Origin: a virus
Taxonomy: Duplodnaviria > Caudoviricetes
Strand: one strand, 5' to 3'
DNA length: 36,231 bases
Virus record (IMG/VR): IMGVR_UViG_3300025015_000079
Span: 1 to 36,231 of that record
The first letter of the stretch is position 1; each line of letters opens with the position of its first letter. This document shows, one piece after another, positions 4,536 to 30,811 of the stretch. The notes under the pieces are model-generated. The model had not been told where the DNA came from. It did not search any database and saw nothing but the letters and a program-made list of their open reading frames with translations. The position numbers and the translations under genes were made by a program.

Positions 4536-4544
4536 GACGCATGA
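4299..4544 (+). CDS. hypothetical protein with CPFCG
   Basis: start follows repeat-borne RBS; ATGA overlap downstream. Confidence 0.6.
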   Translation: MSTSRCPFCGNAGWILDSRTDRYPISLELIACIYPECSVSGRAVAQLSVIGPKFTSVAEHPTEGYVMSLSKPLSARPMEDA

Positions 4545-4684
4545 CGAGCTTTACCGATCCCGTGACGATGCCTTTATGGGTGCTGCTATTAGCGGGCATC
4601 GCTTTCAGCTTTGCGTCGGCCGTGGTTAACGAGATCATTGGGGCGATACGCCGCTATCTACACGGAGACGACGTCCATGCCTGA
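4541..4684 (+). CDS. small single-TM membrane protein
   Basis: LWVLLLAGIAFSFASAVV; GGAGG RBS. Confidence 0.6.
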   Translation: MTSFTDPVTMPLWVLLLAGIAFSFASAVVNEIIGAIRRYLHGDDVHA

Positions 4685-5374: not shown

Positions 5375-5604
5375 CACGAATCAGCGAGGCCGACCTCTCC
5401 CACGCCGCGTTGCGCCAGACCGTCCACGGCAACTGGTACATCGCGGCGAACGATGGCAGCGGCCTCGAATGGGGCTACTTCGACTCGCAGGGCGCTGCCC
5501 TTACCTTCGTCGGCAAGTATGCACGTCGTATGTCTGCGCTATCCGTGGAGTTGCGACGGCTTGGGCTGTCGGTGGCGTCGGCGACGCCGGAGAAGGCGCG
5601 CTAA
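5371..5604 (+). CDS. hypothetical protein, last gene of the + operon
   Basis: GTGA overlap; its stop overlaps the convergent tatC stop. Confidence 0.55.
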   Translation: MTRISEADLSHAALRQTVHGNWYIAANDGSGLEWGYFDSQGAALTFVGKYARRMSALSVELRRLGLSVASATPEKAR

Positions 5605-6569
5605 GGCTTCGTGGAGCGCGCGAGGTCCGCCGCCCTCGTAATCACCTCACGCGCCCACCTGACCGCCCTGTCCAGCCACGCCTGCACCTCGACAGGCAAG
5701 CGGCCGTCCCAGACGAACACGATCACGTAGGCCAGCCCGCCGAGCGCCAGCGCCAGCAGCACCGCGAGCACGAGCCAGCGCCGCCGCCAGACCCCGGCCA
5801 CCACCGCCTTAGCCTTCTGCGCGCACGTCCTGTGACCCGCCTCCCGTGGCCGCGCCAGCCACGCACCGATCAGCCCGACCTCGTACAGCACGAAGATCGG
5901 ACCCGCCATCATCGCCTGATTCACGGGGTCGAACGTGGGGGTCAGGATCGCGCCCAGGATGAGGGCCGCTACGAAGACGTACCACCTGAGCCCCCTGAGT
6001 TGCCGGGATGAGGTGAGTCGCATCTTCGCCAGCAGGAACATCGCCAGCGGTATCTGGAACACGACGCCCATCCAGAAGGTCAGCGCCCACAGGAGTCTCA
6101 GGTACTCCGTGATAGCGATCAACGGGACCGCGACTCCATTGCCGAAGCTGAGCAGGAACCTCAGTCCGGTGGGGAGCATCACGTAGTAGGCGAACGCGGC
6201 CCCGACGATCCAGCACGCGAGGGCCACGGGGATGAATATGCGGATGAACCGCCGAACGTGAGACGGAATCCACTGGCTTACGAGGGTGTAGAGACTGATC
6301 GCCGCGACCGGGAGCGCAGCGATAACCCCTCCCCGCATGGAAACATAGAGCGTAGCGCCGAACATCTCTGTCGGCGCGATGAAGATTGGCAGCCCCTCGT
6401 AAGGGGAGAGCATTCCCCCGGCCGGGACGAGCAGGAACTGATAGATAGCCTCGCGGAACTGCCAGGTTGCGCTACTGCCGAGCCCGAAGGCTGCGAAGAC
6501 AATCCAGCAGCGCCAGTGGAGGCGCTTGCCGAAGCGACGGCCCGCGTCCCAGCCAGGGACGCTCGGCAT
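5601..6569 (-). CDS. tatC: TatC-family twin-arginine translocase subunit, divergent, with an extra C-terminal TM helix
   Basis: six-TM TatC pattern: LIFIAPTEMF-like loop, GAAFAYYVMLP..LRFLL, ITEYL, GVVFQIP, AILTPTFDPVNQ...P...LYEVG. Confidence 0.93.
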   Translation of the reverse strand: MPSVPGWDAGRRFGKRLHWRCWIVFAAFGLGSSATWQFREAIYQFLLVPAGGMLSPYEGLPIFIAPTEMFGATLYVSMRGGVIAALPVAAISLYTLVSQWIPSHVRRFIRIFIPVALACWIVGAAFAYYVMLPTGLRFLLSFGNGVAVPLIAITEYLRLLWALTFWMGVVFQIPLAMFLLAKMRLTSSRQLRGLRWYVFVAALILGAILTPTFDPVNQAMMAGPIFVLYEVGLIGAWLARPREAGHRTCAQKAKAVVAGVWRRRWLVLAVLLALALGGLAYVIVFVWDGRLPVEVQAWLDRAVRWAREVITRAADLARSTKP

Positions 6570-6706
6570 TAGGACGCCGAGGGCTTGTCAGCCTTCTTGA
6601 AGCGGCTGAGGAACTTCCGGCTGGAGCTGATCGCGACGGCCAGGATCAGAAAAGCGGCGATGCAGCCGACGATTATCAGAAGTTCTTGAGGACCCATACC
6701 GAACAT
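6569..6706 (-). CDS. tatA: 45-aa TatA/TatB-like single-TM protein (not in ORF track)
   Basis: MFGMGPQELLIIVGCIAAFLILAVAISSSRKFLSRFKKADKPSAS; AGGAG RBS; TAATG overlap with tatC start; lacks the FG hinge. Confidence 0.7.
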   Translation of the reverse strand: MFGMGPQELLIIVGCIAAFLILAVAISSSRKFLSRFKKADKPSAS

Positions 6707-6717
6707 CTTGCACTCTC

Positions 6718-6951
6718 CTACAGGCGCTCAAGCATCTTGAGCACACTACTTGAACGCATCCGCCGCACCATGCCGTGCATGCCGGCCTTTGTCGTGATCG
6801 CCGTCCACGTGAGGATTCCGACACCCGCCTGTGCCAGATCGGGCACGAGGCCGGTCGCCTCCCCGAAAAGGTACTTCGTCCCCCGCACCGCGACGAACGA
6901 GCCAAAGATGGAGACGAAGATGATACGTAGGAGCCAGCCCAGCGGTGACAT
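6718..6951 (-). CDS. 77-aa two-TM membrane protein (holin-like topology)
   Basis: LGWLLRIIFVSIFGSFVAV and a second hydrophobic stretch LAQAGVGILTWTAI; basic C-terminus. Confidence 0.55.
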   Translation of the reverse strand: MSPLGWLLRIIFVSIFGSFVAVRGTKYLFGEATGLVPDLAQAGVGILTWTAITTKAGMHGMVRRMRSSSVLKMLERL

Positions 6952-6955
6952 TCGG

Positions 6956-7243
6956 CTACGCCTTCTTGTCCTCAAGCCCATCCAGGACACCTCGAATCAT
7001 CCCAGCGCCCTTACGGAGATAGTGCTCGCCCATGATCTTGATCGGCTGGAACCCCGCCTTCTTGGCGCGCTCGAAGACGTCGCGGAGCTCTTCACGGAAC
7101 TCCTCTGGGGTCGTGGGCAAAGACCGCACCGCCTTGGTCTCGGACTTCGCCTCCCCAGCCGGTACAGCCACAGGCTCGACTGCTGCGGGGGGGGCCGGTG
7201 CCTCCGCGGTCGCGGTCTTCGTCGTCGCGTCAGCCTTCACCAT
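6956..7243 (-). CDS. hypothetical protein (Ala/Pro-rich N-terminus, amphipathic C-terminus)
   Basis: AAGGGA RBS; typical codon usage. Confidence 0.7.
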   Translation of the reverse strand: MVKADATTKTATAEAPAPPAAVEPVAVPAGEAKSETKAVRSLPTTPEEFREELRDVFERAKKAGFQPIKIMGEHYLRKGAGMIRGVLDGLEDKKA

Positions 7244-7272
7244 AGGAATGTCCCTTCTGAGTCACAGCGCAC

Positions 7273-7278
7273 ATTGTA
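7273..7278 (-). promoter_or_regulatory. candidate -10 box for the four-gene tat cassette
   Basis: TACAAT in a 50-bp intergenic gap; no good -35. Confidence 0.35.
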
Positions 7279-7293
7279 TAGGTGTTGGCGCGA

Positions 7294-7473
7294 CTAGGCC
7301 GCTGGCGTATCGGCCGCGGCTGGCTTCGGGCACTTCGCATGCTCGGCTTGGGTCTCCACGTACTGCCGCGTGAGAGAGGCGTTCACCATCTTGAGGTTGG
7401 TGTTCTCGTCCTGAAGGCTGCGGATCACCGCGTGCAAGTCCTGCGCGGTCACGTTGATCGTGTTCTGTGACAT
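7294..7473 (-). CDS. 59-aa coiled-coil protein (not in ORF track)
   Basis: MSQNTINVTAQDLHAVIRSLQDENTNLK...; starts 2 nt after the upstream stop. Confidence 0.6.
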   Translation of the reverse strand: MSQNTINVTAQDLHAVIRSLQDENTNLKMVNASLTRQYVETQAEHAKCPKPAAADTPAA

Positions 7474-7475
7474 CT

Positions 7476-7760
7476 TTACCCCTCGTACGCGCTGGGTGAT
7501 GCGACGGCCTGCCGGGCGACGCGGAACTCGTAAGCCAAGACCTCCTCCGACACGACCTTGTAGATGTACGAGGCCGCGTCGTTAGCGTCGGGACGACCGA
7601 CAGGCCAAGCACCGCCGCCCGGATAGGGCTGTGTCGCTTTGAGGAAGTCTTGCAGCCTCGTTAGTGCTCCGTTGCCAACAGTCTTTCCACCGGGATAGGC
7701 GAGGTTGTCAGCGCGAGCGGGAAAGCTGGTCGCTTCCTTGATTTGCGTGTTCGTCGCCAT
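7476..7760 (-). CDS. hypothetical protein (tail-associated position)
   Basis: AGGAG RBS; follows the fibre gene. Confidence 0.7.
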   Translation of the reverse strand: MATNTQIKEATSFPARADNLAYPGGKTVGNGALTRLQDFLKATQPYPGGGAWPVGRPDANDAASYIYKVVSEEVLAYEFRVARQAVASPSAYEG

Positions 7761-7769
7761 ATCGTTCTC

Positions 7770-8879
7770 CTACGCCTTGGTCGGGTACACGGTGAAGTAG
7801 TACGGCGTGCCGCCGATGTCGATCTCGATGTCGAGCTGCGTACCGCTGAGGGCGGAGGCGGAGGCGTTCTTGAGGTTCTTGAGGACCATGCCGCTTGCGC
7901 CGGTTCCGGACGAACCCAACACCGCACTGGCCCTTGCTATCGAGTTGCCTGCAGCGTCCCACCGCCAGACCTCGCGGATGCCGTCAGGGTTTCCGCCACC
8001 CGGATGCGTGCGGACCACGACCGCGGCCCCAATGTCGCTTGTAGCAGGGGACGCGTCATCAACCTCGAAGATGATGTCGGCAAGGGTCGTAACGTAGTCG
8101 GTTCCATCGTCCGCGACTGCCCGAAGCACGCCGAGAATGTCGTCGTCCGCGACGATGGTGAAAGAGCCGATAGTCGCGTTCCGTGATTTCACAAAGTAGG
8201 CGACAGGGCCATTAACGTCCGCAGACCACCGCCCAAGTATCGTGGACGCATCCGCCGCGGCTGTCCCTAGGACTTGCACCTCCGACGTGTCGCCAGCGGC
8301 AGACACCTGCGCCGTGTGGCCGACGATCAGGCCGTACCCGTTGGCAACCGAGATGTCGCCCGTAAAGCCGTGATAGCCGGTCCCGACAACAAGCGAGTTG
8401 TAAAGCTGGTTCGTGCCGTCGTACTGGATGGTCGCGTCGCCGCCTGTACCAAAAGTCAGCGCGACGCTGTCGTTGAATGTCTTGGCCGCCGTGATCGCTT
8501 GGGCAAGGCCCAGCGTCATCAGCGTGTCGGTGCCCGTGATGACCGGCAGGTTGAGCTGGCGGTCCGCGGTGATCGCACCGGGCACGATGTCGTAATCAAA
8601 AGTGAAGGCAGGATTGCGAACACGAAGCGTCTGGACTTCCAGTGCCGTGAACTGCGCCGACGCGTCGTACATGTGCCAGCGGACACTTGAGCCGTTCGTG
8701 ATCCGAACGTCGTAACGCCCCTCGGTCGCGTGCGAGAACGCCCAGTAGCCGTTCGCGTCGGTGGTCGTCGTCGCGAGCACCGGCGTCGTGGTGTTGCGGG
8801 CCAATAAATCAACAGTTGCCCCCTCGATAGGAACACCCGCATTTGTAAAGAGGAACGAAGCCAGTAATTGCGTCGCCAT
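7770..8879 (-). CDS. tail fibre/spike-like virion protein
   Basis: N-terminal prealbumin-like motif GVPIEGATV...TTTDANGYWAF; Gly/Thr/Ala-rich beta repeats; position after tail genes. Confidence 0.65.
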   Translation of the reverse strand: MATQLLASFLFTNAGVPIEGATVDLLARNTTTPVLATTTTDANGYWAFSHATEGRYDVRITNGSSVRWHMYDASAQFTALEVQTLRVRNPAFTFDYDIVPGAITADRQLNLPVITGTDTLMTLGLAQAITAAKTFNDSVALTFGTGGDATIQYDGTNQLYNSLVVGTGYHGFTGDISVANGYGLIVGHTAQVSAAGDTSEVQVLGTAAADASTILGRWSADVNGPVAYFVKSRNATIGSFTIVADDDILGVLRAVADDGTDYVTTLADIIFEVDDASPATSDIGAAVVVRTHPGGGNPDGIREVWRWDAAGNSIARASAVLGSSGTGASGMVLKNLKNASASALSGTQLDIEIDIGGTPYYFTVYPTKA

Positions 8880-8880
8880 G

Positions 8881-9462
8881 TTAAGGACCTACTTCTCCAA
8901 GAACATCGACTCCTGAGGCGCCCCGCGAGCCAGGCATTGTTGATACACAGCCAGATCGCCCGCAGACGCATTCACAACGCGCCTGCTTCCAAGAACCGTG
9001 CTGCCGCTGTCTGCGCTTCCGTCCCGATAACGCAGTGCAGGCACGGCAATGCCTTCTGCCAGCACGCGTGACATATGTGTTGGCATCGTCGAAAGGATGT
9101 CCGCGTAGGCAGTGCGTTTTAAGTCGCCAGAAATCGCTAAGAACCTGACTAGACTTGCCGCGGCGATTATTCTCAGCGCGTGTAACGGGTTCTAGGTGTG
9201 CCGGATTGACACAGGCACGAACGCGACAGAGATGATCTATTTCAAGGCCCGCAGCGATCGGCCCGACTAGAAGTTCATAGCTGACCCGATGCGCCTTCTG
9301 GGTTCTTGATAACTTCCGCCCGCCCCCGCTTCGAATCACTCCATAACCGTCATTCACGTTATCTTTGGCACCACGCCATATCCAACAGGAACTTCCATTC
9401 CACAGGGGGCCGGTTTTCTCGACCATTGCCCGGAAGCGTGCCTCTAACGTTTGCGTTGCCAA
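8881..9462 (-). CDS. HNH homing endonuclease
   Basis: CWIW..GYG..AHRVSY...IDHLCRVRACVNPAHLEPVTRAEN; KTHCLRGH..CRAC; more AT-rich than flanks. Confidence 0.92.
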   Translation of the reverse strand: MATQTLEARFRAMVEKTGPLWNGSSCWIWRGAKDNVNDGYGVIRSGGGRKLSRTQKAHRVSYELLVGPIAAGLEIDHLCRVRACVNPAHLEPVTRAENNRRGKSSQVLSDFWRLKTHCLRGHPFDDANTYVTRAGRRHCRACTALSGRKRRQRQHGSWKQARCECVCGRSGCVSTMPGSRGASGVDVLGEVGP

Positions 9463-9772: not shown

Positions 9773-11653
9773 CTAAGCCTCAATGCACGTCACGGTGGAT
9801 TTCCCCCGTTCGTCGTGCCCGGTAGCCTCAAGGCCCGTGGCCTGCACCACGTCGACGTAGTAGTTGCGATCCCCACCGGAGTCGTCGCGGAACGTCAACT
9901 CGACCAGCGTCGTGGTCTCCACAGCGGTAATCAGGGCGGCGCGCCGTTCTGCGGGCGACCGTCCGCCGTAGACGGGCACGGTGAAGTCGATCTCGAACTC
10001 ATGGCCGTACTTCGCCGGCAGTTTCTTGCGGTAGATCAGCGCCATCGACAGCACGTCGGGCTTTAGCGTCGTGGTCGAACCACGAGCGAGCGCGACCCTG
10101 AAGCGGATCGCCCGGAAGTCCGTGCCTGTGGGCGTTGACGAGTCGGGAAACAGGTAACTCGTGACGCCATTGGAGGAGATCACGCCCAACTGCGTGTAGG
10201 AGGCCGAGTAGTTCGAGCCGTAGGAGATCGTGGCCGTCTCGGTCGCCGTGGCCCCGGCAAGCTCAACCCGTAGTTCAAGGGCCGTCTTGGTGACTTCGAT
10301 CTGGCCTGCGTCGAACCACGGCGTCTCGTGTTCGGCTGAGGCCGCGTAGGCGAACGTTGTGATCTCGTTCGGGTTCACGATGTCCCGCGGGATCGACATG
10401 TAGTAGATGCGCTGGTTGTGCGCCCACCACAGGCGATAGGTCGAGTAGGCGTTCGAGACATGGGCGTAGGTGATCGCCGCTGCGTTTTCCCCGCCGAGCC
10501 ACTTGACTTCCCACGCCCCGCCATCCCAGCCCAGGATGTGAGAGAAGCCCGTGTCGACGTCGATCACGTCGGCCGCGTTCGGCGCGTTCTCTGCGCTGAA
10601 GTCGTCAAACTCGCCGGGCGCGGTCGTGGCGTCGAAGATCGCCAGAAGCTCGTTGGGCGTCGAGAGTAGTTGGCGAATGACGCCGCGCTTGTCCGAGGGC
10701 AAGCCGTCGTCGCGGTCCGGCCCCATGACGGAGACGGCCGCGCCCGGCCCCTCACCTGCCCCGTAGCGGTGGATGCCGTTGCCGGACGAGTAGTACAGGG
10801 CGTCGCGCCAGCGGGCAAACCCCTTGCCGCTGTCGGGATGCGGGGGGATCGCCAACTCCACCTCGTGGAACACCCCGTTGTCGTTGTCGTAGGCGTAGGG
10901 GCCGTAGGTGGTCGCCGCGTACAGGGCCAGCGTGCCGTCTGCGAGGCGGCCAACCTCAAGGTTGGTCACGGAGTTGTTGGGCAAGGGAAGCTGGCCCGCG
11001 TTCGTTTCTGTCCCGATGGCGGTCGAGAACCAGAGTTGGCCTGTGAAGTCGATCCCCCACAGGCGATCGTCCCAGTAGGAAAGGAACTGCGTGTCCTTCG
11101 TGTCGTCGTTGAAGGAAGCGCCGTCGCTTGTGTAGGTATAGCCGCCGGGGGTTCCGGAGGTCACGAAGGCCAGATAGACGGTCCCGCCCATGCGAAACGT
11201 GATGGCGTCGGTCGCTATGGCGGGCAGGGTCGCAAGCGAGCTACCCCACGAGTCCGTCGTGTTGTTGTACTTGCGAACGTCGGTGCCAAAGGCGGCGTAG
11301 ATCTCGGAAGCCAGCTCCCCGATGGCCCCGACCGTGAAGACGCCGGTGACGCCGGACGCGGCCGTGGTGGTGGCAAGGGCAGGCGGTACAAGGTGGCCGT
11401 GGTAGCGCAACTGGCAAGTCGACCACCACGCACGATTTACTTGATCCGGCGTCCGCATCTTGTTGAGGCCGATGCCGTCGCGCCAGTTGTTCATCACGAG
11501 CACAGAGGCGCGCCGCTGGGAGTCGTAGCGGTAGTCGCCCGTGACCTGCTTTTCCGGGTATATCGAGGCGAGCGCCGACTTCACGCCGCCCGTGATGGGA
11601 TGAGGAACAGAGTTCAGCAGGACTTCGCCGGATTTCGCAACCGCTCCTGGCAT
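9773..11653 (-). CDS. tail nozzle/stabilisation-like beta-propeller protein
   Basis: 626 aa, beta-rich; WDDRLWG..LWFS and ETPWFDAG...K motifs seen in podovirus tail hub proteins; follows adaptor. Confidence 0.6.
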   Translation of the reverse strand: MPGAVAKSGEVLLNSVPHPITGGVKSALASIYPEKQVTGDYRYDSQRRASVLVMNNWRDGIGLNKMRTPDQVNRAWWSTCQLRYHGHLVPPALATTTAASGVTGVFTVGAIGELASEIYAAFGTDVRKYNNTTDSWGSSLATLPAIATDAITFRMGGTVYLAFVTSGTPGGYTYTSDGASFNDDTKDTQFLSYWDDRLWGIDFTGQLWFSTAIGTETNAGQLPLPNNSVTNLEVGRLADGTLALYAATTYGPYAYDNDNGVFHEVELAIPPHPDSGKGFARWRDALYYSSGNGIHRYGAGEGPGAAVSVMGPDRDDGLPSDKRGVIRQLLSTPNELLAIFDATTAPGEFDDFSAENAPNAADVIDVDTGFSHILGWDGGAWEVKWLGGENAAAITYAHVSNAYSTYRLWWAHNQRIYYMSIPRDIVNPNEITTFAYAASAEHETPWFDAGQIEVTKTALELRVELAGATATETATISYGSNYSASYTQLGVISSNGVTSYLFPDSSTPTGTDFRAIRFRVALARGSTTTLKPDVLSMALIYRKKLPAKYGHEFEIDFTVPVYGGRSPAERRAALITAVETTTLVELTFRDDSGGDRNYYVDVVQATGLEATGHDERGKSTVTCIEA

Positions 11654-12925: not shown

Positions 12926-13510
12926 CTAGGCCCGCTCTTCTAGATACTGAATCGCTTTGCGTATTCGTGGAAGGCTGTCGCCCAACCATCCAAGTGCCCT
13001 GTTGCAGTTGTCGCAGAGCAGGCCACGAACACGGCCCGTTGAGTGGTCGTGGTCTACTGACAGACATCGCCCACGGTGACGCCGTTGGCCCCGCTGACCG
13101 CCTCCGCAAATAGCACAGACACCATTCTGTTCAGCCAACATACGGGCGTAGTCCGCCTCAGTGATGCCAAAGCGGGAGACCAAGTCGGCAGCCCGGCGCT
13201 TGTCTTTAATGCGCTGGTAATACTCCCTACTGTGCTGACTGGTTCGAAGTTTCTGATCTGCCGAATAGGCGTCTTTTGTAGCTGCTTCGGGGTGCAATTC
13301 GCACCAACGAATAAAGGACATCACCGGTGTCTTGCCAGTTAGGGCGTGACGACGCTTACGGGCTCGCTCACGAGCCTCATTACGAATCCCCTCTGGGTCA
13401 GTTTCTCGACGCGCTTGGTAATGGGCTTTCGCGCGGGCGCGCATGGTCTCCCGATTGCGGGCGTAGTAGCTCTTCCACCAAGCCTGCCGTTTAGCCGTTA
13501 GGTTTGGCAT
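12926..13510 (-). CDS. endonuclease VII-type HNH nuclease
   Basis: YARMLAEQNGVCAICG...VDHDHSTGRVRGLLCDNCNRALG; more AT-rich than flanks. Confidence 0.92.
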   Translation of the reverse strand: MPNLTAKRQAWWKSYYARNRETMRARAKAHYQARRETDPEGIRNEARERARKRRHALTGKTPVMSFIRWCELHPEAATKDAYSADQKLRTSQHSREYYQRIKDKRRAADLVSRFGITEADYARMLAEQNGVCAICGGGQRGQRRHRGRCLSVDHDHSTGRVRGLLCDNCNRALGWLGDSLPRIRKAIQYLEERA

Positions 13511-19233: not shown

Positions 19234-19655
19234 TCAAGTTCCTCTTCGTGTGCGTCGGCCCGTTCGGTCAGGATTTGCTCTCGGCTGAACACGGCCGCGA
19301 TCTCGTACTCGAAGTAGTCAGAAGCAGCGAGCGAAGGTACGAACGAGACGCCGGTATCGCCGTCGTCCAGAAAGCGTTCGCCCCTCGCGACCCGTGGCAG
19401 CATCTCTCTGGCCGTTGGCGTGCGCCGGGGGCGGATCGTTACTGGCTCGACCATCGGGAACGGCCCGGTCATCTTGAAGCCGTGACTCTCGACGTGCTCC
19501 CACCCCTGCTTGTGCATGTCGCGCACGAACTGCTCCGCGACCTTCACCTTTTCCCGGTCCAGCCTGAAAGGCGGCGGGTACGGCTCGATCTTGAAGCGAC
19601 AGCGCAACCTGTAAGGCTTGCGGTCCAGGGTGGGACGGACGATGAGCGTGGTCAC
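19230..19655 (-). CDS. hypothetical protein
   Basis: GTG overlaps capsid TAG; the upstream part of the track ORF is an off-frame shadow of the capsid gene. Confidence 0.65.
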   Translation of the reverse strand: MTTLIVRPTLDRKPYRLRCRFKIEPYPPPFRLDREKVKVAEQFVRDMHKQGWEHVESHGFKMTGPFPMVEPVTIRPRRTPTAREMLPRVARGERFLDDGDTGVSFVPSLAASDYFEYEIAAVFSREQILTERADAHEEELE

Positions 19656-20527
19656 TACTTGAGGCTCTGCAAACGGACCCCGTGGAGCTTCGCGGTCGTC
19701 GTGACCGCTGCGCCCTCGTCGGCTTCCTCGCGTTCGAAGACGCCGTAGATTTGGTCGGTGGCGAGCACCCACGCCTTCGCGAGCGGGGAGAACCACGCGT
19801 CCTGCTTGGGCTGCTTCTTGACGATCTTGAAGAAGTGGTCCCCGGCCCAGATGTGGCCGCTGGAGTTGGGGGCCGTCCCGACCGTCAGGGGCGAGGCGTA
19901 GAACGTCGACTGGTAGACCTTGCCGATCTGGGCCTCGTGCAGCGCGTTGCCGCCCGTGTCGCCGTTGTAGAGCGCCTGGATGAACTTCTCGACCTTGAGC
20001 ATGCCACCCCAGCACCCAGGCGAAACGACGCCCTTGTAGGGCGACATCCCGGACGAGTCCTGAAGGTACTGCCACGCGCGGATGAAGTTGTCGTCCGTCA
20101 TCTCAGCACCGAGGGTCCCGACCGTCTGGGTCGTGTTGTCGTCGAGGAGAGCGGCGGCGGCGACATCCTGTGCGCGCCCGAGGGCGTAGGACGCGGCCGT
20201 GGTGTACTCGGCGCGGATGTCGTACTTCGACATGACTTCCGCGAAGTCCTCGATCTCCTGCGCCACGATCTGGTGCGTCGAGACCGTGAACGTCTGCTCG
20301 CTTTCGGTGATCGCCTCGGGCGTCGCGTCTGAACCCGCCGACTTCGTGTTGGCGGTCAGGTTGTGGCGTGCCGGCAGATGGAACACGTCGCCGCTTCCAG
20401 TCATCCTGCCGGACCAGTCGGAGAACAGGCCCGCGATCACGAGCTTGAACTCGACGGCTCTGTTAAGCTCAGCACTCCAAATTTCGTCGATGAACTTATC
20501 TGCGGTGGTGCCAGTTACGTTTGCGAT
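19655..20527 (-). CDS. major capsid protein (HK97 fold, P22-coat/N4-gp56-like), apparent ATC start
   Basis: ANVTGTTADKFIDEIWS, GDVFHLP, IEDFAEV.SKYDIRAEY...SYALGRAQD, GKVY, DQIYGV; follows scaffold; AAGGAG 6 nt before ATC at 20527. Confidence 0.85.
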   Translation of the reverse strand: MANVTGTTADKFIDEIWSAELNRAVEFKLVIAGLFSDWSGRMTGSGDVFHLPARHNLTANTKSAGSDATPEAITESEQTFTVSTHQIVAQEIEDFAEVMSKYDIRAEYTTAASYALGRAQDVAAAALLDDNTTQTVGTLGAEMTDDNFIRAWQYLQDSSGMSPYKGVVSPGCWGGMLKVEKFIQALYNGDTGGNALHEAQIGKVYQSTFYASPLTVGTAPNSSGHIWAGDHFFKIVKKQPKQDAWFSPLAKAWVLATDQIYGVFEREEADEGAAVTTTAKLHGVRLQSLK

Positions 20528-21424: not shown

Positions 21425-21679
21425 TTACCGGGTGAAACTCGCCATGCTTGTCGCAATCATGTTGTCTTTGATCTGTCTCGTCGCGTCCGCGATAAGGCGA
21501 TCAATCTGCGCGTTCCTGTCCGATAACGCTCGCTCAGTCGCCCGCGCCGTGGTGCGGCCGGGCGTTGTCAAAGGCGTCTGTTCAGACGGCCCGGAGAACA
21601 CCGCCCACGACAGCGCCGCGCTCCACGCGAGACTCACGATTAACCCGATCACGAGGAGTTTCAGCAGCAATTTGTCCAC
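21425..21679 (-). CDS. N-terminally membrane-anchored small protein
   Basis: GGAGG RBS before GTG; LLLKLLVIGLIVSLAWSAALSWAVF followed by a helical segment. Confidence 0.55.
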   Translation of the reverse strand: MDKLLLKLLVIGLIVSLAWSAALSWAVFSGPSEQTPLTTPGRTTARATERALSDRNAQIDRLIADATRQIKDNMIATSMASFTR

Positions 21680-27409: not shown

Positions 27410-29305
27410 CTATGCGCTCTGTCCACGAGCGCCCGGACGCGGGGTATTCGGGGCCACCATAGCGGGGCCGTTGTTGGAAGTCTCTGGCTGCGGCGGTCCG
27501 CCCTTCATAGCCTCTGGCGATACCTGCGGCAACGCCCCCTTGGGCCTCGCGGGCTGCCCGCCGCCTTCGCCTGCTGGAGCACCGCCCTCGCCATCGGGCG
27601 GCAGCATGCCCCACTTCTGCATCATGAGGTGTATGTACTCTAAGCGGTACATGTTAGCGGTCACCATGTCACCGCGTTCAGCCGCGGCCGAGCCGAGCGT
27701 GTACAACTGCGCCTCTGGAAGCCCGGACTGCGCCTTCTGGGTTCGCATCTTGTCGATGGCCTGATTCGAGTCCTGGAGTTGAAGCACCTGATCGAGGATA
27801 TCGACGTCTGCAAGCAACTCGGTTTGCTTCGCCGTCAGGGCCATCTGCCACTTGCCCTGATCGTCCTGAGGCAGGTGGCTCGTGAGCTCGACTTCGTAGT
27901 CGCAACTCGCCTGAAGCATCTCGGGGTGAATGAGCTGGCTGAAATACTGGCGGTGGGAGTCGCGACCGGAAAGCTTTACCCCCTCGAACGCGCCGGTCAT
28001 GAACTGGTCGTAGAGCAAGTTCACGATCTGGGTGTGGATCGCGGTCATTGCCTGCAAGCGCGAGCTGAGGACGGTTTCGGTGGCCTGCCGAAGCTGGGTG
28101 ATGGCGAAACCTGAGAGTTGGAAGGGCGTCTCGCCGTAGATCGAGTGAGGAAGCGTGGCGCGCTGCCACTCGCCGTCCACGGCCACCATGTAGGCCCCAG
28201 ACTCCTGCGCCATCTTCTGCAGGTCCAGCGTGTAGATTTTCTCGCCCGTGCGGGTGGCGATCTCGGTGCCCTGCTTGAAGGGGTCGTCGGGCAGGGTCTT
28301 GTTGCCCTGCTGGGACTCTGTGACCACGGTCTGCCGACGAGCGCGGGCGACGATCTCCAGCATGATCGACATGATGTCGTTGCGCTTTTCGGCAATGTCT
28401 CTGACCGCGGCGAAGACTGATTCCCCAACGTCCGCAATCAGGTTGGAGAACGCCTCTGATTGCAGCAAGGGCGCCGGGCCAACAAGGGCCAGGTAGACAG
28501 GGGGGCGCGGCGAGCCGTGGAGGGTGGGGGGCTTGAGCGTCTCGTTGTCCGTGACGACTTGATTGACGAATCCGTCGTAGAAGTCGTAGGTCCAGACCCC
28601 CGAACGCTCGGCGTCGGTCGTTGAGTCTTTGCCGGCGAATACCATCGCGGCAGCCGCGGGACCGTACTCGGAACGAATCTGGGCGCGGGTCTTCTTGATC
28701 TTGTAGCACGCCCACGCGAGACCATCCGGGCCAACCCCCCAGTGGATGTTGAGGGGATCCCACGCCGTGATGTCCGCGTAGGTCGAGCCGTCCGGTCTCT
28801 TGACCAGCAGACACCGGCCTCCAACGTACCCGCCCCGGATAGTGATGTGGGTGGCCTGCGCGTCCTGAATCGTCGGCTGCATGAGGCTTTTGAGCCGTTC
28901 GTCGGCCTGCCGCAGAAGCCCGATCGCGAACCGCTCCTTGTGGTCGTCGACATCGGGAGCGTGCGACCCGGCCTCGATGTGGGGAACGCGGGTCATAAGC
29001 TCGGCAGTCGACAGCCACGAAATGATCTTGTCCGCGAACACTTTTGGCATGTTCGAGGTGTAGCGGGCGTAGTTCTCAAGGGGCTCGTTGGTCACCGGGT
29101 CGCGGTTGACGTGAGCGGTGAGCCGGTAGAGGCGGTAGTCGCGGTCCATGCGGTCGCGCATGGGCTGGACGTCCTTCTCGTGGGTGTTGGTGAGCTCGAT
29201 GACCTCGGCGCGCGAGTACATCTGGATCGGCGGGGGCGGCGCTTCCCCCAGAGGCATGACCGCGGTCTGCCCCATGTCCATCGGCGGCGCGCCGTTTTGC
29301 ATCAT
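27410..29305 (-). CDS. portal protein
   Basis: 631 aa directly after TerL; WDPLNI, SGFAITQL, YEVEL..LPQD, Pro/Gly-rich tail as in P22-like portals. Confidence 0.8.
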   Translation of the reverse strand: MMQNGAPPMDMGQTAVMPLGEAPPPPIQMYSRAEVIELTNTHEKDVQPMRDRMDRDYRLYRLTAHVNRDPVTNEPLENYARYTSNMPKVFADKIISWLSTAELMTRVPHIEAGSHAPDVDDHKERFAIGLLRQADERLKSLMQPTIQDAQATHITIRGGYVGGRCLLVKRPDGSTYADITAWDPLNIHWGVGPDGLAWACYKIKKTRAQIRSEYGPAAAAMVFAGKDSTTDAERSGVWTYDFYDGFVNQVVTDNETLKPPTLHGSPRPPVYLALVGPAPLLQSEAFSNLIADVGESVFAAVRDIAEKRNDIMSIMLEIVARARRQTVVTESQQGNKTLPDDPFKQGTEIATRTGEKIYTLDLQKMAQESGAYMVAVDGEWQRATLPHSIYGETPFQLSGFAITQLRQATETVLSSRLQAMTAIHTQIVNLLYDQFMTGAFEGVKLSGRDSHRQYFSQLIHPEMLQASCDYEVELTSHLPQDDQGKWQMALTAKQTELLADVDILDQVLQLQDSNQAIDKMRTQKAQSGLPEAQLYTLGSAAAERGDMVTANMYRLEYIHLMMQKWGMLPPDGEGGAPAGEGGGQPARPKGALPQVSPEAMKGGPPQPETSNNGPAMVAPNTPRPGARGQSA

Positions 29306-29311
29306 CGCGGG

Positions 29312-30811
29312 TTACCCAAGCTCGAACTGTCGCCGGAGGCCATTGGAACGCTTGGCAGAGCCCCCGCCGTGACGTTTCATCGTGAAGTGCTCACTTTCGC
29401 CGTAATGGACGAGGCCGAAGTGCTGCACGATTCCGTAGATGGTCGCCTTGATGCCGTCGTTGTACTTGTCGTCGGGGTCTCCGGGAATCACGTTCCCCTC
29501 CCGGTCCGTCTTGTGGGAATAAATCTCCCACCGCGGGGTTTCGTAGAACGGGCTGGGATAGGCTCCAAGTTCAGAAAGCACGCCCTTGCAGCGCGGATCG
29601 AACACGATTCCCGGCTCGCCGGTAAGGGGGTTGACCTTGAGGAACGTTTTCAGGCGTTCGGTGCCCTCGTCGATGCCGACTTTGACGCCCATCGTGGCGA
29701 GTTGGGTCTTGGCGAGCCAGATTTCGGCTACTGAGTGCGTTCCCTGGTGCTGCTCGGCGTAGTTCGGGTCGATCACGAGGGTCTTGTGGGGGTTTTTCCA
29801 CCACGGGCGGCTCATGCAGATGGCAATGATGTCGTCGGTGGTCTTCCCGCGCTCGAAAACCTCATCTTTCATCTGAATTTGCCCGTTCGGGGCCATCTGG
29901 GCGATCTCGACCGCGTAGGGGTGGTTGTAGCCGGGGTCGGTCCAGATGTAGAGGGGCAATTCGGGGTCGTAGATGAGGTCGCGAATGTGGATGTGGGCGC
30001 GGAACTCGTCGGCAAACACCGCGCCCTTCGGGGCTGCCACCTCGCCCATGATGCGTTCGAGGAAGAACGCGTCGGACGACTCGCGCTTGAGGAGCTGAAT
30101 CTTCGGGTCGTTGACGCCGCCGGGGTACACGTGCTTGTTGGTCGGCGAGGGTAAGACGAAGCTCTGCTGTTCTTCGGTGCCGTGCTTCCAGCTCGCGGCC
30201 ATGCCGGGATACCAGCCAGCGGAGCCGTACTCGTAGGTTCCCGACATGTGCAGCCAGCCGCCGGAGGCGGTGACGCGTTCGAGGCACTTGAAGTAAGTGT
30301 CCAGGTCGATCTGTGACGCCTCGCACACGATGATCCCGTGGGGCGAGAACATCGCGAGGGTGCGGGGGTCTTTACCCGACTTGGTCTCGACGATCATGAA
30401 GGGCTTTTTGTCGTCTTTGGCGTCCTTGGCGTTCAGGTGAATGACGATGCGGCCGGGGTCGACGCGCTTGGAGTCGTCGACCGCGTAGCCCAGCCTACGG
30501 AAGTTCTCGATGATGTAGTTCCACTCGGCCCGCACCCTCTCGTAATCGGCGGCCACCAGCCAGTACAGGAGGGTCGCGCCGGGGTTGCGGTGCCTGTCCT
30601 CGTAGACGTGGATGACATGGGAGGCAGCGGCGGAACGCGACTTGCCCGCTTGGCCCCCTCCGACGACCAGCACGAACCGCTTGCGGCAGCGCAGGATGGC
30701 GGCCTGATCTGGGCCGGTAGGCTCGAAGCCGATCATCTTGAGGAGGAGCGCGGACGCGGGGCCCAGCCTCCACGGGTCTGCGATCGGCGCAGGGGCTACG
30801 GCGGTGGTCAC
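29312..30811 (-). CDS. terL: terminase large subunit
   Basis: Walker A GGGQAGKS, variant Walker B IIVCEAS, SGT coupling motif, nuclease WTDPGY, IDP, DKYND; GTGA overlap at start. Confidence 0.88.
   Translation of the reverse strand: MTTAVAPAPIADPWRLGPASALLLKMIGFEPTGPDQAAILRCRKRFVLVVGGGQAGKSRSAAASHVIHVYEDRHRNPGATLLYWLVAADYERVRAEWNYIIENFRRLGYAVDDSKRVDPGRIVIHLNAKDAKDDKKPFMIVETKSGKDPRTLAMFSPHGIIVCEASQIDLDTYFKCLERVTASGGWLHMSGTYEYGSAGWYPGMAASWKHGTEEQQSFVLPSPTNKHVYPGGVNDPKIQLLKRESSDAFFLERIMGEVAAPKGAVFADEFRAHIHIRDLIYDPELPLYIWTDPGYNHPYAVEIAQMAPNGQIQMKDEVFERGKTTDDIIAICMSRPWWKNPHKTLVIDPNYAEQHQGTHSVAEIWLAKTQLATMGVKVGIDEGTERLKTFLKVNPLTGEPGIVFDPRCKGVLSELGAYPSPFYETPRWEIYSHKTDREGNVIPGDPDDKYNDGIKATIYGIVQHFGLVHYGESEHFTMKRHGGGSAKRSNGLRRQFELG

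Follow-up and report, generated by a model that had tools for sequence, protein, structure and literature searches.

We analysed the IMG/VR virus record IMGVR_UViG_3300025015_000079 (Duplodnaviria; Caudoviricetes) over its whole length of 36,231 nucleotides (nt), hereafter the window, in which a homolog of the twin-arginine translocation (Tat) protein TatC is encoded with three small genes, A, B, and C. The record is linear and 93% complete (CheckV), so a few kb may be missing, and the sequencing runs with window DNA were from groundwater and soil; none of those listed was an RNA run, a point not used as evidence. Terminase, major head, and tail-fibre genes form one minus-strand operon closed by the four cassette open reading frames (ORFs), and the window virus is a bona fide tailed phage. 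A reading made from the letters alone (the sequence-only reading) had placed a four-gene Tat-derived cassette at 5601..7243, at the end of this late operon; all four minus-strand ORFs were found there and were also picked by an independent codon-usage gene caller. The features, with lengths in amino acids (aa) and transmembrane helices abbreviated TM, are:

6956..7243, minus strand: gene A, 95 aa, a soluble protein of an orphan family
6718..6951, minus strand: gene B, 77 aa, an orphan predicted to form a helical hairpin in the membrane, with a basic amphipathic tail after it; candidate pore-forming subunit
6569..6706, minus strand: gene C, 45 aa, a TatA/B-shaped single-TM protein, TAATG-coupled to tatC
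5601..6569, minus strand: phage TatC, 322 aa (PF00902, E 4.8e-41)
5601..5855, minus strand: C-terminal extension of phage TatC, about 84 aa, with Arg/Trp-rich helices and one extra predicted TM (residues 266-284)
7273..7278, minus strand: candidate -10 hexamer TACAAT, weak, upstream of gene A

The stop codon of C and the start codon of tatC overlap in a TAATG at 6567-6571, read directly and as previously claimed, and the third-position GC content (GC3) of tatC, 0.86, was like that of neighbouring virion genes. The TACAAT that the sequence-only reading had offered as a -10 element is present, but it has no matching -35, and a consensus sigma-70 scan gave no promoter-like sites. In 15 of 45 non-redundant loci, against a shuffle mean of 8 and maximum of 15, gene A was preceded by a hexamer resembling a -10 element, weak evidence for a promoter, obtained with an author-chosen motif set. 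Two junctions, that of tatC with gene A (5770-7175) and that of gene A with the fibre gene (7215-7973), were bridged by contigs from other runs with even depth, although none of those listed covers the whole 10 kb. Because of these contigs, and because the gene order recurs in many independent contigs, the chimeric assembly that the sequence-only reading had allowed for is unlikely.

Phage TatC and its three small partners

In agreement with its Pfam match, the AlphaFold model of phage TatC (predicted local distance difference test score, pLDDT, 84) matched solved TatC 4b4a in Foldseek (E 3.3e-9; template modelling score 0.79 by target), as well as 9e01 and 9dzz, confirming the proposed identity and the six-helix TatC fold. 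The protein also matched solved TatC structures by sequence, and phrog_36238 (E 2.9e-15, function unknown); its 124 bits fell below the NCBIfam equivalog cut-off of 133. We aligned 92 phage-type and 78 cellular TatCs to E. coli TatC, near-copies included and four fragments of less than 200 aa dropped. Passages of PMC5577447 describe F94 and E103 as the TatC signal site, and T208 and Q215 as contacts of residue 8 of TatA/B. Cellular TatCs kept H12 (78/78), E15 (78/78), F94 (77/78), E103 (78/78), and K73 (72/78). In the window, the positions of H12, E15, F94, and E103 are occupied by F13, R16, L96, and V105, the twin-arginine site thus being lost. None of the 92 phage-type proteins had E15, 88 of them carrying R or K there, while F94 was kept in one (L in 90), E103 in 15, K73 in nine, and H12 in at most one. 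The trend recurred in a second alignment, of 90 database relatives, of which 12 had F94 and four had H12. Phage-type rows nevertheless retained T208 (91/92), D211 (92/92), Q215 (77/92), and E170 (77/92); the window equivalents of the TatA/B polar cluster are T210 and Q218, and that of D211 is D214. The M205 position is Ala in phage and Dehalococcoidia TatC alike. D211 is proposed, in passages of PMC13673990, to drive membrane-potential-dependent movement of TM5/6, and TatA assemblies are described there as destabilising membranes. Judged by these residues, phage TatC is predicted to be signal-blind, with the twin-arginine site lost and the TatA/B dock and D211 retained. With the signal site gone, it would not be a normal twin-arginine exporter, and none of the 27 window proteins screened had a twin-arginine motif with a hydrophobic signal.

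Phage-type TatCs also differed from cellular ones at both ends. The C-terminal tail had a median length of 53 aa and net charge of +10 in 81 phage-type rows, compared with 17 aa and +4 in 76 cellular rows, and an extra TM was present in 24 of the 81; the median charge of the N-terminal segment was +5 versus +1 in cells. In the window, the tail is basic and Trp-rich, with model helices at 249-288 and 293-319. The N-terminus of phage TatC as a mimic of a twin-arginine signal was considered and dropped, its spacing departing from the consensus. A complex prediction of TatC with B scored 0.00, with controls not folded, and was not used as evidence.

The protein of gene A has a low-complexity acidic and Ala-Pro N-terminus followed by two conserved C-terminal helical stretches. 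It matched nothing in Pfam, PHROG, or NCBIfam, and of its 260 database relatives at E<=0.001, the 120 listed held no Pfam domain. For gene B, which the sequence-only reading had called a two-TM protein, the model is indeed a hairpin (helices 3-30 and 37-56, pLDDT 67), but hydropathy resolved one clear TM (4-22) and the second helix is less hydrophobic. Its 127 representatives at 50% clustering were all of 103 aa or less, with no fusion. No family was common to the 111 members scanned, no holin appeared among the 25 listed of 31 families, and B had neither a PHROG match, a BFVD fold match at E<=0.001, nor a usable match in an Atlas search. In one sub-lineage (L007, L132, L141, L152, L156, and L161), B is cut to 49 aa with a single TM. 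Locus L005 has an HNH-like ORF of 190 aa and a gene of 65 aa inserted between B and C in an otherwise unbroken cassette.

Gene C lies where the host has tatB (host order tatB-tatC) and encodes an N-terminal TM (9-27) preceded directly by Glu8 and followed by a short basic tail. The Glu before the TM was nearly invariant in 41 members, as expected of the polar residue (E8/Q8) in TatA/B. The sequence-only reading had called C TatA/B-like, which stands for its shape and Glu8 and lacks statistical support as homology: in the proposed PF02416 search, none of the 41 family members matched at E<=1, nor did any of five phage records in six frames. Profile-profile probability was 27% to host TatA and 3% to TatB, and the tail after the TM is short, without the F/L-G hinge and amphipathic-helix signature of TatA. 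Homology of C, and likewise of B or A, to TatA/B was tested and was not significant. As far as sequence comparison can tell, C is thus TatA/B-shaped only and not a statistical member of TatA/B.

Distribution, operon slot, and host

A protein search with the window TatC returned about 90 relatives at 42-65% identity besides the window's own record, none on a contig of more than 47 kb; the next matches were named Chloroflexota, Dehalococcoidia, and SAR202 TatCs at 36-43% identity. Scanning viral contigs with the single sequence gave no match. An alignment query found 13 IMG/VR loci, at least 575 confirmed metagenome stretches (best 80 kept), and 311 genome stretches (best 80 kept). Metagenome contigs were classed as phage-type by clade and cassette; the shortness of many prevents proof of viral origin, and the counts include near-copies. 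Of the phage-type loci, 62 had at least 900 nt of sequence before tatC; all 62 carried A and B there, 57 in the order A-B-C and five without C, bearing out the conserved synteny that the sequence-only reading had proposed to survey. The A, B, C gene set was found at none of 78 cellular tatC loci. In the window and the viral loci inspected, A-B-C-tatC are co-directional and follow tail/fibre genes, and two carriers are complete genomes with direct terminal repeats. Carriers, compared with the window, ranged from 48 to 64% GC, and four of them have no more than three other genes in common with it. Two loci were the only phage-type ones in the best 80 of 311 genome stretches: a 29-kb contig in a Planctomycetaceae metagenome-assembled genome (MAG; L014, G013:C52), which also has the gene for the 626-aa virion-operon protein listed below and is probably a mis-binned phage contig, and a 3.5-kb tatC contig in a Chloroflexota MAG (L015). 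We left aside 14 TatC matches in GenBank "phage" entries (23-31% identity), since these entries include bacterial whole-genome contigs and are probably host DNA.

All four cassette genes are under purifying selection, the pooled ratio of nonsynonymous to synonymous substitution rates (dN/dS) over disjoint pairs being 0.21 for TatC (27 pairs), 0.32 for A (13), 0.15 for B (15), and 0.19 for C (22). In a 69-row maximum-likelihood tree, the 40 phage-type rows formed one side of a 100/100 branch, the stem measuring 0.97 in a quick tree, and the clade was nearest Dehalococcoidia TatC. Because the cellular rows were only Dehalococcoidia and E. coli, the tree alone does not fix the donor.

The virion genes that define the operon, and that we used for finding relatives, are:

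27410..30811, minus strand: large terminase and presumed portal, which open this late operon (terminase phrog_2, E 1.7e-11; portal by position only)
19655-20440: major head protein (phrog_267, E 2.6e-18)
9773..11653, minus strand: 626-aa conserved virion-operon protein, its role assigned from position; 225 viral loci encode a relative
7770..8879, minus strand: fibre gene located upstream of the cassette (PHROG tail fibre, E 1.3e-15)

The 626-aa protein served as an anchor for related phages with or without the cassette, and 80 of the 225 viral loci found with it were surveyed for the slot. Of the 16 relatives with 6 kb or more of downstream sequence, 15 had no cassette, and tatC was found nowhere in the whole records of 10 cassette-free relatives (seven near-complete); the cassette is therefore accessory in this phage family. 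The sequence-only reading had held that a cassette absent from relatives and evolving neutrally would point to a decaying host capture; evolution is not neutral, yet most close relatives lack the cassette. In its place, many relatives carry a different module, 3.2-7.5 kb downstream of the 626-aa gene, that consists of a 50-aa two-TM protein (H), a membrane-anchored protein of 270-440 aa without a family (M), and often a 70-aa amphipathic protein (Z); carriers are L221, L226, L229, L236, L245, L250, L266, L271, L272, and L212. Of 27 relatives with at least 4.5 kb downstream, 17 had H and/or M, one had the TatC cassette, nine had neither, and none had both. In the 11 TatC phage records, neither H nor M was present. 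Of four H proteins scanned, one weakly matched lambda-S holins (PF05106, E 2.7e-4, below cut-off; phrog_785, E 1.3e-3), and an Atlas search with M returned unnamed clusters only. We regard the H/M/Z module as a candidate, undescribed, endolysin-free lysis cassette. Z also follows tatC in two of the 11 TatC phage records, L002 (+1546) and L007 (+1576), a further link between the two modules. Likenesses between the TatC tail and the M N-terminus, H and B/C, and Z and A/B were rejected (profile-profile probability <2%).

As claimed by the sequence-only reading, no endolysin was recognised among the 58 window ORFs by Pfam or PHROGs. Six-frame scans with PF01510, PF00959, PF01464, PF13539, and PF01520 found none in 11 TatC phage records; a scan with PF05838 was uninformative, its control being blank, and other lysin families were covered by gene-level scans only. 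Nor was an endolysin present among the 126 proteins of three complete TatC phage genomes. The co-absence of endolysins with the cassette that had been proposed as a check therefore holds within TatC phages but is not specific to them, as 10 of 10 cassette-free relatives also had none in a scan for two families.

Several lines of evidence link these phages to Chloroflexota. Among the best 80 genome loci of the TatC query, 79 were in Chloroflexota/Dehalococcoidia records (78 cellular TatCs and one phage-type contig). A search of 401 Dehalococcoidia genomes that was independent of tatC gave one strong match to the 626-aa protein, in genome G123. There, an integrated syntenic prophage (G123:C4, about 784000-824000; L285-L287) lies in a 1.36-Mb contig with host genes on its flanks; identity to the window is 45% for terminase, 32% for the presumed portal, and 48% for the 626-aa protein. 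This prophage has an integrase and no tatC cassette, its slot holding two-TM proteins of 92 and 44 aa. No murA scored over cut-off in G123, which had one weak match to a Mur ligase domain, while the Dehalococcoidia genome G015 had a strong Mur ligase match. Passages of PMC10284905 and PMC11994032 report that peptidoglycan has been lost in most Dehalococcoidia, its genes being gone from orders 10-25, and that SAR202 has a surface layer (S-layer) as its envelope; as some Dehalococcoidia are also described there as retaining peptidoglycan, the host of this phage is presumed to be wall-less. The cassette phages, a widespread environmental group, thus likely infect wall-less Chloroflexota. Gene B had no convincing match in the 401 genomes; five weak ones (E 7e-5 to 6e-4) were treated as chance, three having internal stops and the others lying in much longer frames. 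Together, synteny, dN/dS, the single clade, the Dehalococcoidia link, and the lack of an endolysin support the proposal of the sequence-only reading that this is a repurposed and maintained Tat-derived module of phages whose host lacks peptidoglycan.

Candidate functions of the cassette

The cassette is a mobile membrane module of the late operon, maintained by selection and centred on a TatC with the TatA/B dock but without the residues that bind twin-arginine signals. With bacterial TatABC (E. coli; Dehalococcoidia, with tatB-tatC and a convergent tatA), it shares the TatC fold, T208/Q215, D211, and a Glu-bearing single-TM small protein encoded directly upstream of tatC; a TPTxDxxNQ signature is common to Dehalococcoidia and phage TatC. 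Unlike TatABC, the phage system is virus-encoded, has lost H12, E15, K73, F94, and mostly E103, carries a basic C-terminal extension, and has two orphan partners, with no recognisable TatA/TatB and no twin-arginine cargo found. The nearest precedent for a conserved, signal-blind TatC is haloarchaeal TatCt, which has been retained although F94 and E103 are lost (PMC13673990 section 11). However, TatCt is a cellular 14-TM fusion beside a signal-competent TatC (TatCo), whereas phage TatC is a single unit with no competent partner in its genome. According to the 2026 Tat review (PMC13673990), second TatCs of bacteria keep the signal site; the words "virus" and "viral" are absent from that review. 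TatC (PF00902) has been annotated in a circular marine virus, in the legend of Fig. 6 only (PMC10564846); passages of that paper describe two viruses, link the circular one to Porticoccus by k-mers only, and do not specify which carries TatC. No description of the cassette beyond that annotation was found in the literature searched (subscription papers and supplements excepted), and this virus-encoded, signal-blind Tat-derived system is apparently undescribed.

We tentatively favour, at somewhat less than an even chance, a reading in which a phage-domesticated, signal-blind TatC and its three small partners act as a signal-independent, membrane-breaching lysis module in place of a holin-plus-lysin pair. 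C would dock its Glu on the T208/Q215 cluster of TatC, as TatB does, and B and/or host TatA might then oligomerise at TatC, with A or the basic TatC tail replacing the signal peptide as trigger or timer. What is a transient lesion in Tat transport could so become lethal, and would be enough to burst an S-layer-only cell predicted to lack peptidoglycan, releasing progeny. Holin and pinholin cassettes such as lambda S and phage 21 S occupy the end of the late operon and encode small membrane proteins with basic tails. The TatC cassette resembles them in its type of slot and its small membrane proteins, and the slot of relatives holds a weakly lambda-S-like protein; unlike them, it has no endolysin or recognised spanin, its B and C fall outside holin families, and it is built on a captured translocase subunit. 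The last position in the virion operon, the swap with a holin-like module, the kept TatA/B dock and D211, the Dehalococcoidia host link, and the lack of a recognised endolysin favour lysis, bringing this reading near to, though still below, the probable. We also count for it that the cassette is common to phages sharing almost nothing else with the window, as host-envelope modules are. Because none of five near-complete TatC records has an integrase, the function is probably exerted in the lytic cycle.

Several observations weigh against lysis. In E. coli, F94A/E103A TatC does not bind signal peptides and leaves Tat locked at rest, without substrate-induced TatA assembly, according to passages of PMC5577447; a signal-blind TatC is therefore by default inert or inhibitory, which is the main objection. 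Lysis would accordingly require an extra trigger beyond signal binding. B and C as families have no holin homology, the holin match of H is sub-threshold and limited to one of four proteins, and nine of 27 relatives show no recognised slot module. A weak H match (26 bits) occurred in one of 25 TatC-bearing contigs, L132. An integrase was present in one of 11 TatC phage records, and a possible promoter of its own (15 of 45 loci) would permit expression of the cassette outside the late programme. Finally, the absence of an endolysin is in line with a peptidoglycan-less host, yet it does not set the cassette apart, because the 10 cassette-free relatives also gave none for the two families scanned.

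The same residue pattern suits a dominant-negative inhibitor, in which signal-blind TatC joins host TatBC oligomers or soaks up TatA/TatB and so stops Tat export, serving host takeover or superinfection exclusion, for example by removal of a Tat-exported receptor. Loss of F94/E103 with the polar cluster kept reproduces the resting-locked E. coli mutant, which still binds TatA and TatB according to passages of PMC5577447, and haloarchaeal signal-blind TatC halves are proposed to partner normal TatC (PMC13673990 section 11); a possible promoter in a subset of loci and the accessory nature of the cassette would also fit. Against such a sink, the phage's own TatA/B-shaped C would occupy the dock instead of leaving it open, and two further orphan genes kept in 62 of 62 loci exceed what it needs. 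Late-operon position and exchange with a holin-like module would be left unexplained, integration is rare among these phages, and the search of 401 Dehalococcoidia genomes found no convincing gene B. We hold inhibition to be unlikely, if a serious competitor. More doubtful again is a private exporter, with TatC and C (and B) forming an orthogonal translocase whose re-wired basic recognition face would serve one folded phage cargo, such as the acidic protein A, or a fibre/depolymerase with which the phage would attack the S-layer from within or block receptors on the outside. The kept fold, D211 (92/92), and E170 (77/92), the reversal of E15 to R/K in 88 of 92, the N-terminal charge of +5 versus +1, and the acidic N-terminal region of A are in keeping with it. 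However, the screen of 27 window proteins gave no twin-arginine signal, the cassette encodes no conserved enzyme-like cargo, A has no catalytic features, and the short tail of C lacks the TatA hinge/amphipathic-helix signature.

A membrane role unrelated to Tat chemistry, be it an insertase or scaffold for B and C, a virion-assembly anchor, or exclusion of competitor DNA entry, would accommodate the orphan status of A, B, and C and the long amphipathic tail gained by TatC, with its extra TM in 24 of 81 rows. We consider it improbable, because the TatA/B dock and D211 are strictly kept, which speaks for Tat-like mechanics still being at work. That the cassette is a decaying gene set recently captured from a host, or an artefact of chimeric assembly, might be suspected, since tatC is normally cellular and the 14 GenBank "phage" matches look like host DNA. 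It is refuted, with almost no probability left to it, by the single viral clade on a long stem, dN/dS of 0.15-0.32, two genomes with direct terminal repeats, a GC3 of 0.86 like that of virion genes, and the bridging contigs in other runs.

How tailed phages exit peptidoglycan-less bacteria is poorly known, and the TatC cassette and the holin-like module that replaces it are concrete candidates, in phages that likely infect a lineage (SAR202/Dehalococcoidia) abundant in the dark ocean and subsurface. The 92 natural TatCs (near-copies included), from which the signal site has gone while the TatA dock and D211 remain, amount to a natural experiment on the link between signal binding and the steps of TatA assembly and membrane opening. 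If the lysis reading were true, the cassette would represent a new class of lysis in phages and a naturally occurring Tat translocon uncoupled from its substrate. Whether lysis device, Tat inhibitor, or orthogonal exporter, it would be a virus-encoded Tat system of a kind undescribed in the literature searched.

Further genes in the window and in related phages

Two more small ORFs of the window (21425-21679 and 4541-4684), each with a hydrophobic stretch and no family match, may be lysis genes. Two homing-type endonuclease genes (HNH; endonuclease VII) are inserted in the tail region at 8881-9462 and 12926-13510, with low GC3 (0.51 and 0.58). The 112-aa protein encoded at 32012-32350 matches the Acb2/Tad1 hairpin domain below threshold (E 1.8e-5) and is a possible anti-defence sponge for nucleotides. 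Elsewhere, two TatC phages, G005 (L181:3272-8954) and G004 (L184:15533 onward), carry sugar-modification genes inside the virion operon, which in G005 encode NeuB (E 2e-72), a nucleotide-sugar epimerase, and a methyltransferase; these genes may relate to the host's glycosylated S-layer.

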